Assembly: GCA_051251855.1 (NCBI GenBank)
Contig: JBPOGI010000001.1
Location: 608,001-672,000, forward strand
Direction of reading: 5' to 3'
DNA: 64,000 nt
Source: Roseibacillus sp.
GTDB taxonomy: Bacteria; Verrucomicrobiota; Verrucomicrobiia; Verrucomicrobiales; Akkermansiaceae
How positions within the stretch are numbered: position 1 is the stretch's first letter; each line of letters begins with the position of its first letter. The position numbers were made by a program. Of the stretch, positions 18,001-33,000 are shown piece by piece.

Positions 18001-21000
18001 GTATCCCATGATCGCCCTCTTTTTTGCAATCTTTGCCTTCAGTCTCGCGGTGGTGGGGACAGGGCGGATTAAGTTTCAGTTCTTTCCCGAGGTGGAGGGA
18101 GATATTTTGAGTGCGAAGTTGGAGTTGGCTCAAGGGGTGCCCTTTTACCAGACGGAAGAAGTAGTGGCTCGGATTGCGGAGGCTGCCTCTCAGATGGGTG
18201 AACAGTATCAGGGATACGAGGGTGAACCGGTTGTGCGGCATGTGCTTGCGAGTAGCGGGACTCAGCCTTTTATTACAGGGTTTCAGCCCGGTGGCCCACC
18301 AAAAGCAACGCACATTGGAGAGGTCACGATTGAGCTTTTACCCTCAGCGAAGCGCGCTGTAGGGAGTGACGAATTAGTCAGTAAATGGCGCGAGTTGACG
18401 GGGGATATTCCAGGAGTGGTTGAGCTCTCTTTTAAGGCGGAGACTGCCTCGGGCGGGAATGCGATTGATCTAAGTTTGACGGGATCGAACCTCGAAGAAT
18501 TGGAGGCAGCGACGGCTTTTGCTAAGGAGCGGTTGGGTGACTACGAGGGTGTGATTGATATTGCCGACAGTAGTCGGGCTGGGAAGGACGAGATTCAAAT
18601 CGTTCGCCTCACTCGCGCGGGGGAGACTTTGGGATTTACTCTGGGGGACGTGGGGGGGCAGGTCCGAGATGCCTTTTTCGGGAACGAAGTGCAACGACTG
18701 CAGCGAGGGCGAGATGAGGTAAAGGTTATGGTTCGACTACCAGCCGCAGACCGGCGCACGACAGAGACGATCGAGAAGTTGGAACTTACCAGCCCCTCCG
18801 GTGAGCGAGTGGCGTTACGGGATGTCGCGGTCTATCAGTTTGGAAGCGGTCCGGCGGTAATTAATCGTACTGATCGTCAAAGGTCAGTGAAGGTGACGGC
18901 CGATGTGGATGAAAGCACCAACGCTAACGAAGTGGTTGGGCTATACACGAAGGAGGCGCTTAGTGAGATGTCCAGCAGGTTTCCTAGTGTGCAGTGGGGT
19001 TTTGAGGGAGAGCAAGAGGACCAAGCCAACTCTGTTCGGGAAATCGGGATCGGCTTTTTGGGGGCGATTATTATCATGTATGTTCTGATTGCGATTCCTC
19101 TTAGAAGTTACTTTCAGCCGATTATTATTTTGAGTGTGATTCCGTTTGGGCTCATCGGAGGGATTTGGGGGCATGCTGCTCTCGGGATGAATTTGTCCAT
19201 CATGTCAATGGTAGGTTTTGTAGCGTTGGCTGGGGTTGTTGTGAATGATTCGTTGGTAATGGTGGACTTTGTGAATCGTCACCGAGATGAGTTGGGGTCC
19301 GCTCGGGAAGCGGCCTTGCAGGCGGGAGGACGGCGCTTTCGAGCTATTCTTTTGACCTCGTTGACAACGTTTGTCGGCCTTTTACCTATGCTGGCAGAGC
19401 AAGATATGCAGGCGAAATTTTTGATTCCAATGGCGGTTTCTTTGGGGTTTGGAATCATCTTTGCGACGACGATCACTCTCTTCTTGGTTCCGGGAGTTTA
19501 TGTCGTCATGGATGATGTCCAGAGGGTGCTTTTGCGCATCGCTCGCGGTTTCCGCAAGACGAAGGTATGACGGAAAGGGGCTGCTGTTAGGCATTTCACT
19601 GAGCACGAAAAAGTTCTATAGTCCTCTTTGAAGTGAGAGGAAATTTAGAGCAACCGGCTTTGATGCCTGAGGCGGACCGTTTTCGGCAGCTATCTGTAAA
19701 GTGTCGTAACGTGCGCACTTCGTTTCCTCTCGCAATCCTGCGGCATCTCTACTTTCGGATGTGGGGACGAAAAATTCTCACTAGTAATCGAGTGCGAATT
19801 CAAGGACTTAAGAATATCGTAGCGGAAGAGTATCTTACGATTGGATTGAGTCACTACGGATTCATGAACCCCAAGGACAGGACGTTCTTAAACGTGGAGG
19901 GGAAGCTGATCTTTGCCGGACGCTTCACGATGGCTAAGGGGTGCCGTATCGATGTCGGTGGAGATGCAGAGGTGAAATTCGGGTCGGGGTATATGAGTCC
20001 CATGACCGATGTGATTATTGTACATGGCATGACAATTGGTGATGGGTGCGCCATTTCGTGGAGTTGTCAGTTCCTTGATGACGATTTTCACGACCTCAAT
20101 TACGAAGGGCGGAAAGAAATTGAGGATCCTCGAATCCGGATTGGCTCTCACGTTTGGATTGGCAGTCGCGTTTCGGTTCTCAAGGGGGCTGTGATTCCTG
20201 ATGGTTGCGTGGTGGCAGCTAACTCGGTAGTAAACAAAGTTTTTACCGAGAAGAACTGCCTCCTAGCAGGCAATCCCGCGAAGGTGATTCGACGGGATGT
20301 GAGTTGGAAATAGAGAATTCCCCGTTGGGGAACGGATTTTTACTGGCTGCTGTCTTCCTCAACAAGAACGCGGAGATATCCTCGCTCATGGTCCGACTCT
20401 GAGAGACGGAAGGTGAGGTAGTGATATCCGTTAGGTGCTACGGGGACGTTGCTTGGATTAGGAATGAAGGTGACGCCCTGATCCCAATCTTCGAGGTCGG
20501 AGGAGCCTTGGAAGGTGTAGATGAGGCCAGCTGCCCGATAGCTATTGCGCCCGAGGGTTCCACCGACTGCGACGGGAACGGTCTGGCAGCAATTGCCTTC
20601 ATGGTCGAAACCGAGAAGAAGTTGTGGGCGGCTTGAGGATGAGCCTTGATTTGAGCCGAAGGCAAATTCAAGGAGGTTGCTCGTGTTATCGCCATCGCTG
20701 TCCATCATTGCCGCGGCTTGTTGCCCGGTTTCGCTGAGCGTTGTGAAGGTCAGGTTGGACGCGGGTGCGGTTTCAATGAATTCGAACCAGTTCACATTAA
20801 CGGCATCGCCGATCATCTCGAGGCGAAGTACCCTTTCTCCAGAGGTGGCAATAGCTAGGTTCGGGAGAGTGAAGGTGACCCAATTTCCCCAACCGCCGGT
20901 GGACTGAACGTCAATCGTGCCAAGAACTTCACCGTCGAGGGTGACTCGGACGTCGCCCACGATGGACTCGTTACTGGAAGCGCGTAGGTTGAGCTGATAG

Positions 21001-30000: not shown

Positions 30001-33000
30001 GAGAGATGAAGGCAACGAGACTGGCGTTGGCTTCCATCCAAGAACCGTCTTTGCGCTGGAGGGCAAATTGAGAGAGAAGGGAGTCGCAGCGAGTGACCTT
30101 GATTCCGTCCACTTCCTCTCCGAGTTGGTAAGAGCGGCCCGAAAGCTCCAGTTCGAAGGTAAGATCACAACGTGTCGTCTGAGCCTGAGCGGGCAGCAGA
30201 AACAGGAGTGGGAACAAAAAATGATGAGCGATCTTCCTCATGGGGTGGAAACGAGCGCGCAGACTACTATTTTTTATAAATACGATAAAATATTTTATGA
30301 AAGTTGTTTAATGGGGATGTGGCTTTATATTCTTGCAGTAATCTTATTTTAAGTGGTTTAAGTGGTATTTCGTGTCTGTTTAGTAAGGGTGTTTTCCTGC
30401 TGGTTCCGCAATTTTTTAGTTAGGTTTTATGTAATACCTTGTTTGTTTGATTTTTTGAAGAAGAGAGGTAGATGGCTTTAGGGTGACAGTTCTCTTGGCT
30501 GAAGGAGGGTGCTTTGGCTAGGGTTGCCTTAGTGAAAGCTTTAGCCCTGTTCCCAATTCTCTTCTTTTGGTTGTTGAGTGTCCCTCTTTTTGCTGAGCCG
30601 ACGGAGGAACGTGAATGGACCTCGAAAGCAGGAACGAAGTTGGTGGCCTCGGCGCTCGAAATTGATGGCTCGGAAGTGGTTCTGCAACGGGGAACGGGCG
30701 CAACTCTGCGAGTCAAACTGAACCAACTCGTGGCCGAAGATCAGGAGGTTTTGAAAAAGCACTTCTCGGAAGGAGATTCTGAGATTGCGAACGGGAAGAT
30801 GGAGGGCTTGCCTCATCCGCAGGGGGAGGTCGTGGGGCCGATTCAGGCGGAAGGAGGGAAGTATTTTCTCTATGTTCCCAAGAATTTGGTGAAGGAGCGA
30901 TTGGCTCCGTTGTTATTTTTTACGGGCGCAGGAGGTGGGTCTGCGGGGAGCGTTAAGCGTTTCACCGAAGGGGCAGAAGTGAATGGTTGGATCGTAGCGG
31001 CTTCAGTGGAGTCGAAAAATGGCAAAGACGGTCGCCCGTTTGTGAAGGCTTGCTTAGAGCATATTCAAGCCACCCTTCCAGTCGACCCCGAGCGGTTGTA
31101 TTTCACGGGGACTTCGGGTGGCGCAGTGTTCTCGATGATCAACTGCGAGACCTACGATGGAGCAGGGGCGATGCCCTTTATCGCGCATGGGGTGATCAAT
31201 ACTTTGCCTTCGAAGAAGGGCCACTACTACTTTGTGAACGGCGCTACCGACTATAACCGCTATGGGTCTTCCTGGATGCGCACGGGTTACAAGGATCATG
31301 CCTTTCATCGCTTCCATAAGGGCGCTCATGGCGCGGGACCTTTTTATCTGGGGCATGATGGGATGGCTTGGCTCAATGGTCAGTATCTTGCAGAGAAGGA
31401 ATCGGACCGGGAATTTGCGCAAGAGCGTCTCGACTACGAAAGAGCCATCTTGGCATGGGCTGGTCGCTTGCAGGCGGACGCGCCTCATAGAGCGCTTATG
31501 CATTTAGATTTTCTGACCGAAGAGTATGAGGTCTCAAGAGAGAATGCTGGCAAGGTCGATGAGTTGAAGCGTGAGCTCTCGGAGAACCCGAACAATGTTC
31601 GTTACGTCGAGGCTCTTAAAGCGATTGACGAGTTCTCGCAGGACGAATTTTCTGGAAAAGGCGGGAGTTCTCTCCACAAGCACACGAGCGACGATATCAA
31701 AAAAGCAGCGTCCAAATTGGAAGCCGAGTATCAGGGAGTTCCCGAGGTGCCCGAGATTCTGAAGAATCTTCCGAAGCCTTCGATTTAGGGGAGTCTGCCG
31801 ATGGATTCGGTGGGGCCGCTTTCCATGGCTTCCAATGTGGAAGCTAGTTCTTCTCCGGTCGTGGGTTGTTTATGGACGTAGCTAAGACCTTCGTCGTCGT
31901 CGCGCTTGAAGATTGAGGGTGCTTGTTCGGGGCAGAGTCCGCAATCAAGGCAACTGATAGCTTCGACATGATGGTTCAACTGGTTGAATTGGGAGTGGGG
32001 GTTGCCTTTGTTCCTCGGAGGGCGCTTTCGGCATTTCGACGGGCAGGCAAAGTGGAGCGACTCGATGTCGGTCCTGCGCCCGTTCGTGAGATTGGGGTGC
32101 TCAGCCGCAAAGAACCTCGGCCGTCACGCGTGGTGAGAGAGTTTGTTGATGGGATTCTGTTCTCTTGAAGGCAAGTGTTCGCTGCCGCGCTACTACTTGT
32201 ATTCGAGGATTGCAGAGGCTTTGGTGTCCTCGTTCGAGACGAAGCGGATCCAGTAGGCTGAGAAAGCCTTGGGGAACGTGTGATCGATGTTTTCGCTGAT
32301 TTGGAAGGTTTGGTAGTTCACCCAATTACCGTCGCCAGTGAGATCCACTTGGGCGGTGATGGTGCAAGGTATACTGGCGGAGAGGGTGAGATGTTTTTCG
32401 TCGTAGGCGGTCATGAGGTAGGGGTCGGAAGGGGCTCCGGCTTTGACGGGGGTCTCTTTCCAAGGTCCGCCTTTTCCTCGTGGTTTTCCTAGCTTCCAGG
32501 TATCGTCGATGGCTCCGGCCCAGAGCGCGGTTTTGCCGTCATCGGACCGGATGAGGTGTGGGTTGTTAGATTGGGTGTCTTCTTTAATGCCACTCAGGAT
32601 GAGGAGGCCGCGATAGGAGCAGAAGTCGTGAATGGCAAGGTTGTGGGTCGCGACGGGACGCACTTTGGTGAAGCCGCCGGCGTTGCGCGCGGGAAGTTCG
32701 TAGAAAGTGCCGCCAGCGTTGAAGAAGTCGCGTTCGGTGGCGACTTCGCGGGCGATGCGGTGATTGCCGAGAGGGTGTTCGTCGAGATTGCTTTTGGGCA
32801 AGCGCCAACGGTTGCCGTCGTCGTCGGTGTAGATGAGGGAGGCTTCATCGACGGTGAGGGGACCTGAGGCGATGGCGGCATTTTTCTTTGTGAAACGATG
32901 GGATGCGGCGTCGTCGATTCTTTTGAGAGCGAGTTTCTCATCGAGTTCGTAGTAACCGAGGTCTTCTCCATTGGAGTCTACTGCAGCGAAGGCGAGAGTT

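Follow-up and report, generated by a model that had tools for sequence, protein, structure and literature searches.

Why should a galactose-oxidase-type copper-radical oxidase (CRO) share a polypeptide with two c-type haems, and why should a gene for MbnP and MbnH adjoin it? The window that we analysed, 64,000 nucleotides from a Roseibacillus-like marine Verrucomicrobium, holds a two-gene operon that raises both questions. The two ORFs lie where the first-pass annotation had placed them, and the translational coupling that it claimed can be read directly in the sequence as a 4-base stop/start overlap, but the order needed correcting: the MbnP-MbnH gene is upstream (5') of the giant gene. The anatomy given for the giant protein was recovered throughout (Pfam and NCBIfam domains, structure matches, two CxxCH motifs). 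The features are as follows, in window coordinates.

28532..30241, minus strand: mbnPH-like gene; a single exported 569-aa protein that unites an MbnP domain and a di-haem MbnH domain
29633..30169, minus strand: MbnP domain (residues 25-203; Pfam PF20243, 116.7 bits against a cut-off of 27, E 1.5e-33)
28535..29476, minus strand: MbnH domain (residues 256-569; two CxxCH, C296 and C450; 6e1c E 6e-53, MauG 3rn1 E 5e-34)
20340..28535, minus strand: giant gene (2731 aa), beginning at an ATG that shares the bases ATGA with the stop of mbnPH
28464..28535, minus strand: Sec-type signal peptide, read by eye (residues 1-24 of the giant protein, ...SLADA/N)
26970..28373, minus strand: CRO head (residues 55-522; kelch propeller and E-set; Trp167 replaces the fungal loop Trp)
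26550..26945, minus strand: PA14 domain (residues 531-662; Pfam)
25080..25529, minus strand: ConA-like Laminin_G_3 domain (residues 1003-1152; Pfam)
24144..24641, minus strand: He_PIG / Big_9 Ig domain and PKD domain, leading into the cassette (residues 1299-1464; Pfam)
23046..24104, minus strand: YVTN-type beta-propeller, first half of the cassette (residues about 1478-1830; 1l0q E 4.6e-36, HZS beta E 1.2e-5)
22206..23045, minus strand: di-haem domain (residues 1831-2110; C1869xxCH1873, W1911, C1996xxCH2000, P2046-Y-L-H-D-G, His2063)
20775..22139, minus strand: three tandem CBM6/CBM35 modules (about 2133-2587; Pfam; repeats visible in the sequence)
20343..20774, minus strand: C-terminal 144 aa, matching no Pfam family
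20317..20333, no strand: likely terminator, a two-way hairpin with T runs between convergent gene ends (consensus scan only)

The head is a complete CRO, with all five copper/cofactor residues aligned to 9g8h. Residues 55-521 match solved structures at E 3.3e-76 (9g8h) and 1.3e-55 (1gof), and Pfam and NCBIfam recognize kelch motifs and a GO-like E-set at 429-522; Glyoxal_oxid_N reaches 35.7 bits, slightly below its cut-off of 37.5, and the score with the NCBIfam GlxA model is 134.7 (cut-off 800). The active-site residues had been reported as kept, and they are: MFC, RWY, NYHS and ITHG align with MFC, RGY, TYHS and VTHT of 9g8h. Given that Cys123, Tyr168, Tyr376, His377 and His466 are invariant in 120/120 family proteins, these features lie far beyond chance. 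The AA5_2 CROs (Fusarium galactose 6-oxidase, 1gof; 'galactose oxidase', 9g8h/9g43) share by sequence the kelch and E-set fold and the same copper/Tyr-Cys site residues (Cys, Tyr, Tyr-His and His). The protein described here differs from them in having no N-terminal sugar-binding domain (the match begins at 148 of 9g8h and 156 of 1gof), in carrying about 2200 extra residues downstream, two c-haems included, and in the deletion of the 'GGSWSG' stacking-Trp loop, with a Trp instead directly preceding the cross-linked Tyr. The stacking Trp has moved in this oxidase clade: across 81 sequences (24 vs 57), the presence of Trp167 and the absence of the loop Trp covary without a single exception. Trp167 is also present in haem-less Rhodothermales proteins and absent from 3/23 haem-fused heads.

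Some 1300 residues beyond the head, the propeller and the haem domain form one conserved cassette under strong constraint. They were recovered as one HSP in 22/22 loci with a match (21 sequences aligned), at 43-76% identity to the window protein over about 620 aa, and 55 columns are invariant among 39 sequences, with many invariant polar residues in the propeller (for example G-x-P-N-Y-L and P-S-K-x-D-N-I-x-R-G). Pfam places CCP_MauG at 1844-1899, the haem region matches 3o5c at E 6.1e-11 and hydrazine synthase gamma at 9.7e-9, and BLASTP to the neighbouring MbnPH protein gives E 1e-9. By profile, hydrazine synthase gamma is the best match among solved structures (E 3.5e-24), and the NCBIfam hydrazine synthase score is far under its cut-off (53.5 vs 1250).

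H1873, W1911, H2000 and H2063 align with His35, Trp93, His205 and Tyr294 of MauG. H2063 is invariant and stands where peroxidases have Met (the Met-ligand column of 3o5c), MauG has Tyr and hydrazine synthase gamma has a His, and haem 2 is predicted to be His/His ligated. At haem 1 the candidate distal His is not conserved, nor is any other distal ligand in the aligned relatives. The domain has the two CxxCH, the inter-haem Trp, the Asn of LRNT and the P-Y-x-H-D-G of di-haem cytochrome c peroxidases and MauG, but differs from them at both distal positions. The nearest solved relative of the cassette is hydrazine synthase beta/gamma (5c2v), which has the same propeller to di-haem order, a His likewise aligned on the distal side of haem 2 and, in part, the W-D / E-G-L-R-N-T / H-W-x-x-N-F-D-E segment (the S-C-A-S-C-H...W-D stretch aligns); in contrast to that enzyme there is no alpha subunit here, and the host does not belong to the anammox bacteria. 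According to PMC12758564, one haem of the gamma subunit lies in the active site and the other, a bis-His haem, has a presumed part in electron transfer; beta and gamma are fused in some anammox bacteria, and environmental homologs are 'highly prevalent'. The main text of that paper mentions neither galactose oxidase nor Verrucomicrobia.

The first-pass annotation had supposed a large uncharacterised clade, which we also see: the head has relatives in 578 clusters of 1502-4780 aa (E<=0.001) and the haem domain in 1360 representative clusters (E<=1e-30), and our literature search found no paper on this oxidase-cassette family. Head and cassette co-occur in 120/120 family proteins, 538-1326 aa apart, and the fusion spans Verrucomicrobiota, Myxococcota, Saprospiraceae, a gammaproteobacterial MAG and Burkholderia. 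The cassette is nevertheless not specific to copper oxidases. In a sister family of 236 clusters it follows an unrelated LVIVD-repeat head, the type found in 10/10 cassette loci fetched from a 300-genome sample of the phylum, and the haem-site residues are identical in the two classes, with no class-specific substitution. The cassette is therefore not one made to fit a copper-radical site, which weakens the 'built-in activator' of the first-pass annotation as a specific claim. In an NJ tree the cassettes separate by head type at 96/100, one sequence excepted, suggesting long head-cassette co-evolution and not free shuffling.

MbnPH, in turn, tracks the copper head and not the cassette alone. 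It lies directly upstream in 11/13 verrucomicrobial loci with the galactose-oxidase-type (GO) head and enough upstream DNA, with 2 further partial cases at contig ends, and beside 0/10 LVIVD-head cassettes; the two GO-head loci without it belong to genomes that carry MbnPH elsewhere. The proposed pairing of MbnPH with the copper head thus has real support, but it is not obligatory: a search of three carrier genomes from outside the Verrucomicrobiota (Myxococcota, gammaproteobacterial and Burkholderia alba) found no MbnP. MbnPH is also common without this oxidase (53/120 family genomes vs 5/120 with the oxidase). In the MbnPH tree the GO-adjacent copies cluster (73/100), and a 98/100 split separates them from 11 others. 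Copper-regulated operons can contain MbnPH-like genes (PMC9426467).

The MbnH half (CCP_MauG at 274-421, Pfam E 5.5e-53) has the Trp of FWDGR at MauG Trp93 and Tyr521 at MauG Tyr294 (index counted in the printed alignment), the latter a MauG-type position common to MbnH of Methylosinus trichosporium OB3b (6e1c). The MbnP half belongs to the same Pfam family as OB3b MbnP (7l6g), whose WxW aligns with the WxW here (profile E 0.016), and 10/10 GO-adjacent copies keep H133-W134-x-W136-Q137 and S204-T-H206-S-R208. The halves are fused into one chain here, unlike in OB3b, and NCBIfam scores of the fusion are below cut-off. No Cys or Met is invariant in the MbnP domain of the GO-adjacent copies, so the copper ligands may differ from those of OB3b. 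The methanobactin gene MbnB was not found in this 95%-complete genome.

Our main reading, to which we give a probability of about 0.5, is that oxidase and peroxidase work as a relay, carried on a scaffold that binds glycans and supplied with copper by MbnPH; every step of the chemistry, the substrate and any head-cassette contact are putative. The MauG-type di-haem half of the first gene product (His/Tyr second haem) would convert a Trp of the MbnP WxW to kynurenine, building a copper site, and MbnPH would supply the head with copper. The giant protein would be exported by Sec and acquire its two c-haems and copper in the periplasm. Its head would reduce O2 to H2O2 while oxidising an alcohol, which most likely belongs to a glycan bound by the CBM6/35, PA14 and ConA-like modules. 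The peroxide would be taken, and so removed, by the cassette at haem 1, and the oxidising equivalents would travel via Trp1911 to haem 2. Their most likely destination is then the copper site again, where they would either maintain the Tyr-Cys radical or serve as a second oxidant.

A CRO that works with a haem peroxidase has precedents in experiment. Radical formation in CROs requires a one-electron oxidant, and in fungi AlcOx is naturally paired with a peroxidase (PMC9770985, PMC12951238). The putative activation of the head by the cassette would resemble that in CorAlcOx/CorPerOx of Colletotrichum orbiculare, a copper-radical alcohol oxidase with a dedicated activating haem peroxidase; there the two are separate secreted proteins and the peroxidase has a single haem, and here one polypeptide holds both, with a di-haem domain that is c-type and belongs to a different superfamily. 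Streptomyces lividans GlxA/DtpA/Sco offers a similar set of CRO, H2O2-using haem peroxidase and copper-delivery protein, but on three separate genes and with all parts unrelated in sequence to those here (a DyP-type peroxidase and Sco/ECuC in place of the di-haem domain and MbnPH). In PMC4736821, GlxA H2O2 drives DtpA to compound I and GlxA maturation requires DtpA and the copper chaperone Sco, yet GlxA and DtpA were not seen to interact strongly, nor did DtpA improve on HRP.

The 1300-residue gap between head and cassette counts against the relay, and so does the predicted His/His haem 2, which is unlike the His/Tyr haem of MauG/MbnH long-range oxidation. A possible though tentative alternative is that the cassette is the effector and the oxidase only its feeder, the H2O2 being used on a third substrate (a glycan, a phenolic or a propeller-bound small molecule) much as glyoxal oxidase feeds fungal peroxidases. 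The use of the same haem site behind the LVIVD head speaks for this, as do the conservation of the cassette across phyla, equal to or above that of the head (about 47% vs 38-39% in Burkholderia), and the invariant polar residues of the propeller. The latter may just be the interface to the haem domain, however, there is no known candidate for the third substrate or for a site that would bind it, and the co-evolution seen in the NJ tree favors a partnership with the head.

It is unlikely that the haems serve mainly to link the copper head to an outside partner or acceptor, like the cytochrome domain of cellobiose dehydrogenase, making the protein a dehydrogenase or wiring it to another enzyme. 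Resting bis-His c-haems are poor acceptors for high-potential copper/tyrosyl couples. Haem 2, with its predicted His/His ligation, does resemble the haem of hydrazine synthase gamma that has a presumed part in electron transfer, but haem 1 retains landmarks of the peroxidase superfamily and lacks a conserved sixth ligand, features needless in a pure wire, and no conserved partner gene was found near the locus. We consider it quite improbable that the cassette is a maturase in cis, making a one-off oxidative change to the head (at the Tyr-Cys link or elsewhere in its residues) while fused to its own substrate, as MbnH is to MbnP next door. That adjoining fusion is just such an enzyme joined to its substrate, MauG-family enzymes carry out long-range modification of partner proteins, and GlxA requires a peroxidase to mature; yet His takes the place of the MauG/MbnH Tyr ligand, and Trp167 follows the loss of the loop Trp independently of the haem domain. 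Least probable of all, and very doubtful, is a mainly structural surface adhesin with enzyme-like domains no longer catalytic: lectin and Ig modules are many and metabolic genes are absent nearby, but the catalytic residues of the head and the haem-binding residues are all invariant across phyla.

In the proposed relay the glycan would be bound by accessory modules, among which Pfam finds two He_PIG domains, PKD at 1396-1459 and three stretches each of CBM_6 and CBM_35_2. The only grounds for the 'algal galactan' of the first-pass annotation are the CBM6/35 modules and a sulfatase-rich genome (103 matches), and it may be viewed as a candidate. None of the 103 lies within the window, no CAZyme family matched among 20 ORFs scanned, and the lectin modules vary by lineage among relatives. 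The C-terminal 144 aa (feature score 0.95) resemble unnamed clusters whose commonest phylum is Verrucomicrobiota, which we regard as a lead only.

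The giant exported protein P0001 and the fused MbnP-MbnH protein P0002 (MbnPH) are encoded by two overlapping genes on the minus strand. The TGA stop of P0002 overlaps the ATG start of P0001 within ATGA, so the MbnP-MbnH gene is the upstream gene of the pair. The features of the two genes are as follows, with the domains between the signal peptide and the C-terminal domain assigned by Pfam and NCBIfam.

20317-20333, two-way hairpin 3' of the giant gene (consensus scan only)
20340-28535, minus strand, giant gene encoding P0001, 2731 aa
28532-30241, minus strand, MbnP-MbnH gene encoding P0002, 569 aa
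P0001 N-terminus, signal peptide (read by eye)
P0001 55-522, copper-radical-oxidase (CRO) head
P0001 531-662, PA14
P0001 1003-1152, Laminin_G_3
P0001 1299-1464, He_PIG/Big_9 and PKD
P0001 ~1478-1830, YVTN-type propeller
P0001 1831-2110, di-haem domain
P0001, ending at 2587, three CBM6/CBM35 modules
P0001 C-terminal end, domain of 144 aa (look-alike clusters unnamed, with Verrucomicrobiota as their most frequent phylum; a lead only)

The figures of the first-pass annotation for the structure matches, the haem-domain matches, the CxxCH positions and the BLASTP match to P0002 were reproduced within rounding. The closest relative of P0001 is a 2729-aa protein of Roseibacillus persicicus, with a head 85% identical and the same operon (L004), and a second genome of the genus has a matching oxidase at 84%. 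The host genome has one oxidase gene and two MbnP genes. Neighbouring genes (RND efflux, a hexapeptide transferase and three family-less ORFs) give no functional hints.

The head is a galactose-oxidase (GO)-type domain. Residues 55-521 match two solved structures over the full length of the domain, the "galactose oxidase" 9g8h (E 3.3e-76) and 1gof (E 1.3e-55), and contain kelch motifs and a GO-like E-set (PF09118, 59.5 bits, cut-off 25); the score for Glyoxal_oxid_N (PF07250) is 35.7, slightly below the cut-off of 37.5. The head motifs MFC, RWY, NYHS and ITHG align with MFC, RGY, TYHS and VTHT of 9g8h. Within them, Cys123, Tyr168, Tyr376, His377 and His466 are invariant in all 120 family proteins listed, and we take these to correspond to the active-site residues of the fungal enzyme. 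The two Tyr and two His copper ligands and the Cys of the Tyr-Cys cofactor are all in place. Unlike the fungal enzyme, the head has no N-terminal sugar-binding domain, as the alignment starts only at chain residue 148 of 9g8h and 156 of 1gof.

The stacking Trp of the AA5 family is missing from its usual position. The loop GGSWSG, whose Trp is presumably Trp290 of the Fusarium enzyme, is present in 9g8h and in Streptomyces relatives and is deleted in the head, with Gly186 found in 118 of the 120 relatives listed. We still class the head as a CRO because this Trp is a second-shell residue. In P0001, Trp167 immediately precedes the cross-linked Tyr168, and this form occurs in all 120 giant relatives listed. 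Across 81 aligned heads, 24 have only the Trp before the Tyr, 57 have only the loop Trp, and none has both or neither. Based on this pattern, we read Trp167 as a putatively relocated stacking Trp. The relocation is not tied to the haem domain, since the loop Trp is kept in 3 of 23 haem-fused heads (one from Saprospiraceae and two from Burkholderia) and the RWY form also occurs in haem-less Rhodothermales proteins. Trp167 was also considered as a target of MauG-like modification, and this was rejected because the Trp form varies independently of the haem domain and covaries with loss of the loop Trp.

The Rhodothermales MAG loci (L018 and L019) encode two large proteins with an RWY-type oxidase head; the one that was scanned, L018, lacks a haem domain and carries He_PIG, PA14 and FG-GAP, and upstream of it lies a gene resembling that of a formylglycine-generating enzyme. 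In cultured Burkholderia (B. alba and B. multivorans; L028 and L029) the fusion is 1.7 kaa long, carries jacalin lectins and keeps the loop Trp of the classical active site.

The propeller and the di-haem domain of P0001 form one unit, here called the cassette, because residues 1471-2115 were matched as a single HSP across both in every locus with a match (22/22). Identity to the window is 43-76% in an alignment of 21 cassettes. In Burkholderia it is about 47% for the cassette versus 38-39% for the head, and in distant phyla the cassette is better conserved than the head. The di-haem domain has CxxCH motifs at 1869 and 1996 and scores 38.7 bits against CCP_MauG (PF03150, cut-off 25.6), a match that covers its N-terminal part only. 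In pairwise and profile alignments, with positions counted in the alignment, H1873 falls on MauG His35 and H2000 on His205. The inter-haem Trp is present as well: W1911 falls on the Trp of FWDGR in P0002, equivalent to MauG Trp93, and this residue is kept in 38 of 39 cassettes.

The predicted sixth ligand of the second haem sets the cassette apart from both known types. H2063, invariant in 21/21 aligned cassettes, falls on MauG Tyr294 and P0002 Tyr521, on the column that holds the Met ligand in the peroxidase 3o5c, and on a His in the gamma subunit of hydrazine synthase (HZS). With an invariant His at the sixth-ligand position, the second haem is predicted to be His/His, in contrast to the His/Met second haem of classical peroxidases and the His/Tyr second haem of MauG and MbnH, which the MbnH domain of P0002 does have. 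The domain also departs from a canonical bacterial cytochrome c peroxidase (bCCP) in that the position aligned by phmmer to the peroxidase distal His is not conserved in the 21 sequences, which makes an open sixth site probable at the first haem.

The best solved match of the haem-domain profile is HZS gamma (E 3.5e-24), ahead of the peroxidases (bCCPs down to E 4e-21), and the P0001 propeller has a weak match to HZS beta. The order of the parts, propeller then di-haem, is the same as in fused HZS beta-gamma. As described in PMC12758564 (2025), HZS gamma combines an active-site haem with a bis-His haem that has a presumed role in electron transfer, and distant homologs of fused beta-gamma are "highly prevalent in environmental bacteria"; the main text of that paper does not mention galactose oxidase or Verrucomicrobia. 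The NCBIfam scores of P0001 are far under those of the HZS families (53.5 bits against 1250 for fused beta-gamma, 37 against 625 for gamma and 34.3 against 560 for beta), and the Pfam scan of the window ORFs found no HZS alpha-like gene. The cassette would work like HZS, but it is not HZS.

Of 8000 candidates that were scored against the head, 578 clusters with lengths of 1502-4780 aa matched it at E<=0.001, and nearly all of the 120 listed carry cassette families. With our own HMMs, head and haem domain were both found in 120/120 listed proteins, 538-1326 residues apart (median 846), and 119 of them have exactly two CxxCH motifs. The haem-domain profile, searched against 1.84 billion, matches 14956 representative clusters at E<=1e-3, 5596 at E<=1e-10 and 1360 at E<=1e-30. 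In the host's own family the oxidase fusion is patchy (5/120 other genomes). Lectin-type modules vary by lineage: the Roseibacillus group carries CBM6/35, one Myxococcota MAG has NPCBM, Burkholderia and a gammaproteobacterial MAG have jacalin, and legume-lectin, F5/8-C or PA14 occur in other lineages. Apparently stand-alone haem-domain proteins were rejected as a separate class. All 19 that we examined, mostly from long contigs, start within the propeller/Ig region and have no signal peptide; they are fragments or have miscalled starts.

The same cassette is found behind a second, different head. The best 150 haem-domain matches gave 123 new representatives, 84 with the oxidase head and 39 without. 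Most of the 39 are truncated, and eight look complete. All eight have an N-terminal region of about 400 aa, then Big_5, PKD (directly in seven, after a CBM in one), propeller and di-haem domain, and the Pfam LVIVD repeat was scored in six of them. In an even sample of 300 other Verrucomicrobiota genomes the cassette was present in 10. Ten loci were fetched from nine of these, omitting the tenth genome, which has a 693-aa frame on a short contig; none of the ten loci has the oxidase head and nine match the LVIVD-head profile. This head defines 236 clusters, nearly all with cassette families. It has only a weak "choice-of-anchor B" similarity and no credible solved relative, the single match being at chance level (E 0.81), and it is unrelated to the oxidase head: with an hhalign probability of 0.4%, the idea of a disguised galactose-oxidase relative was dropped. 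The invariant residues of the LVIVD head include E110, H112, W170 and Y174 (alignment A5). Among the sister proteins (L097-L106; P0332, P0339, P0342, P0350, P0355, P0357), CBM6/35 modules sometimes lie between PKD and cassette; several of the 236 clusters have type IX secretion tails and one includes a sulfatase domain.

Trees in this study are our own neighbour-joining trees with 100 bootstraps, a weaker method than maximum likelihood. In the tree of 39 cassettes, a split supported by 96/100 places 18 LVIVD-type cassettes and one oxidase-type cassette (Saprospiraceae L024) on one side and 20 oxidase-type cassettes on the other. The haem-site residues are identical in the two types, with no column fixed differently. 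Because these residues are common to both head classes, the cassette is a portable module whose chemistry would be independent of the head.

MbnPH is linked to the copper head. The first half of P0002 is MbnP by Pfam (116.7 bits, cut-off 27) and has the WxW motif, with a score of 45.3, under the cut-off of 140, for NCBIfam TIGR04052. The motif, H133-W134-T-W136-Q137, and a second one, S-T-H206-S-R, are invariant in 10/10 oxidase-adjacent copies, among which no Cys or Met is invariant. The match of the MbnP family profile to solved MbnP (7l6g) is only E 0.016, aligned at WxW. The MbnH domain matches 6e1c at E 6e-53 over its whole length, scores 229.9 for TIGR04039 (under the cut-off of 362.85) and retains the MauG Tyr as Tyr521. 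According to a review (PMC11951088), MbnH turns a Trp of WxW into kynurenine, which is required for copper binding. Of the methanobactin biosynthesis genes, MbnB (PF05114), the one searched for, was not found in the host genome, which is 95.4% complete.

MbnP and MbnH lie directly upstream of the oxidase in 11 of the 13 verrucomicrobial oxidase loci whose upstream DNA extends to 1.7 kb or more (L004, 5, 7, 9, 10, 11, 12, 15, 20, 21 and 22, with L007 split), and in 5 of the 11 MbnPH and oxidase share a 4-base overlap. Two further loci, L006 and L013, are cut short by the contig boundary, where the last part of an MbnH frame is still visible, and L008 and L014 are uninformative. L016 and L017 have no MbnPH within 5.4-6 kb, and both genomes have MbnP elsewhere. 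No MbnP was found at six oxidase loci outside Verrucomicrobiota, nor in genome-wide searches of three such genomes. At the ten LVIVD-head loci, no MbnP- or MbnH-like frame was found in 2.3-5.5 kb of upstream DNA or in the fetched downstream DNA. Comparing 11/13 oxidase loci with 0/10 LVIVD-head loci, MbnPH goes with the copper head rather than with the cassette. It would act as a helper and is not strictly required. In the Myxococcota MAG (L023:4472-5767) a stand-alone MbnH/MauG-like di-haem gene of 431 aa, without an MbnP domain, immediately precedes the gene for a compact oxidase-NPCBM-cassette protein of 1465 aa, and no MbnP was detected in that genome.

Fused MbnPH also occurs in other contexts, being present in 53 of 120 genomes of the host's family. 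In 8 of 13 MbnPH loci (12 picked from long contigs plus the host's second copy) it lies beside YHYH-domain proteins, often sulfatase-fused. The MbnPH tree comprises 23 proteins; in it, all 10 oxidase-adjacent copies cluster with one other (73/100), and a 98/100 split places these 11 and the host's second copy apart from the remaining 11. With moderate support, the GO-adjacent copies thus group on their own. In L084 (C6:346000-365999), the stretch 8971-17307 on the minus strand contains the host's second fused MbnP-MbnH, 593 aa long, which is preceded by a 1117-aa YHYH+sulfatase fusion and a 995-aa family-less protein.

CROs alternate between a Cu(II)-Tyr radical state and a Cu(I)-Tyr state and make H2O2, and once the radical has decayed a one-electron oxidant is needed to regain it, as described in PMC12951238. 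Colletotrichum pairs an alcohol oxidase with a peroxidase dedicated to it (PMC9770985), and when the identified contact residues are disrupted, both assembly of the complex and activation are impaired (PMC12951238). In Streptomyces, DtpA is driven to compound I by the peroxide that GlxA makes, and maturation of GlxA needs DtpA and the copper chaperone Sco, with no strong interaction reported between GlxA and DtpA (PMC4736821). Compared with these sets, the operon appears to fill the same three roles with unrelated components, two of which share a polypeptide. For this reason we favour a reading of P0001 and P0002 as a putative oxidase-peroxidase relay with a copper helper, in which the head would produce H2O2, haem 1 of the cassette would consume it, the oxidising equivalents would exit via Trp1911 and the His/His haem and from there would most likely return to the copper site, and the copper would be provided by MbnPH. 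Several points weaken this reading: the cassette is shared with another head, 1300 residues separate it from the oxidase head in P0001, and the Streptomyces pair itself lacks a strong interaction. The main rival is that the cassette is the effector and the oxidase is its peroxide supply, which agrees with the portability of the cassette and retains a fair probability.

In the boldest form of the relay reading, the cassette would be a portable "peroxide relay" that returns the oxidising power of H2O2 to the same copper site, so that no external activator is needed, little or no peroxide is released, and two alcohols are oxidised per O2 with formation of water, and the GO-adjacent MbnP-MbnH would be a dedicated copper-insertion partner. 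We give this a probability of roughly one in five. If it is true, the operon would be the first context of MbnPH with a known client metal, and copper would be indicated for the YHYH proteins, its other recurrent client. CROs are valued biocatalysts that in use need an added peroxidase or oxidant as a switch and catalase as protection. A single-chain enzyme with its own peroxide-using haem unit, if it is one, would be a template for self-sufficient oxidases and a bacterial answer to the activation problem that fungi meet with a separate peroxidase. The HZS-like propeller-di-haem unit is a mobile module found on at least two kinds of catalytic head.

Our literature searches found no paper on the oxidase-di-haem fusion or its pairing with MbnPH. 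The combination of copper-radical oxidase, peroxidase and copper helper is already known in kind. What we consider new is the predicted assignment of His in place of the Met or Tyr ligand, the putative relocated Trp of the head, the LVIVD sister architecture, which may serve as a natural control, and the head-specific association of MbnPH with its separate tree grouping.

As to the substrate, a life on sulfated polysaccharides is plausible given 103 sulfatase matches in the host genome. The window itself has no sulfatase match, the nearest ones lying at 599444 and 710218 on the contig, and the 20 window ORFs scanned gave no CAZyme family. The "algal galactan" of the first-pass annotation is still a guess. 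In the gammaproteobacterial MAG (L027:1279-5074) the oxidase-cassette gene is directly downstream of pgaB-, pgaC- and pgaD-like genes (poly-N-acetylglucosamine synthesis), which hints that this fusion may act on the organism's own exopolysaccharide, as GlxA does.

The window has a very strong compositional strand bias, with a GC skew of +0.26 regardless of gene direction (22185 G, 13069 C). Across contigs C1-C13, skew is about +/-0.2 on every large contig, with one switch of sign on C1 near 1.10 Mb, presumably an origin or terminus. The C-termini of the window's two giant proteins show no similarity (E 2.5). At 52320-61235, on the plus strand, lies an ORF of 2971 aa that is 18% glycine, begins with a hydrophobic leader and matches nothing in Pfam or NCBIfam, and at 36383-38293, on the minus strand, a 636-aa protein combines a non-specific DNA/RNA endonuclease domain with two lamin-tail domains.
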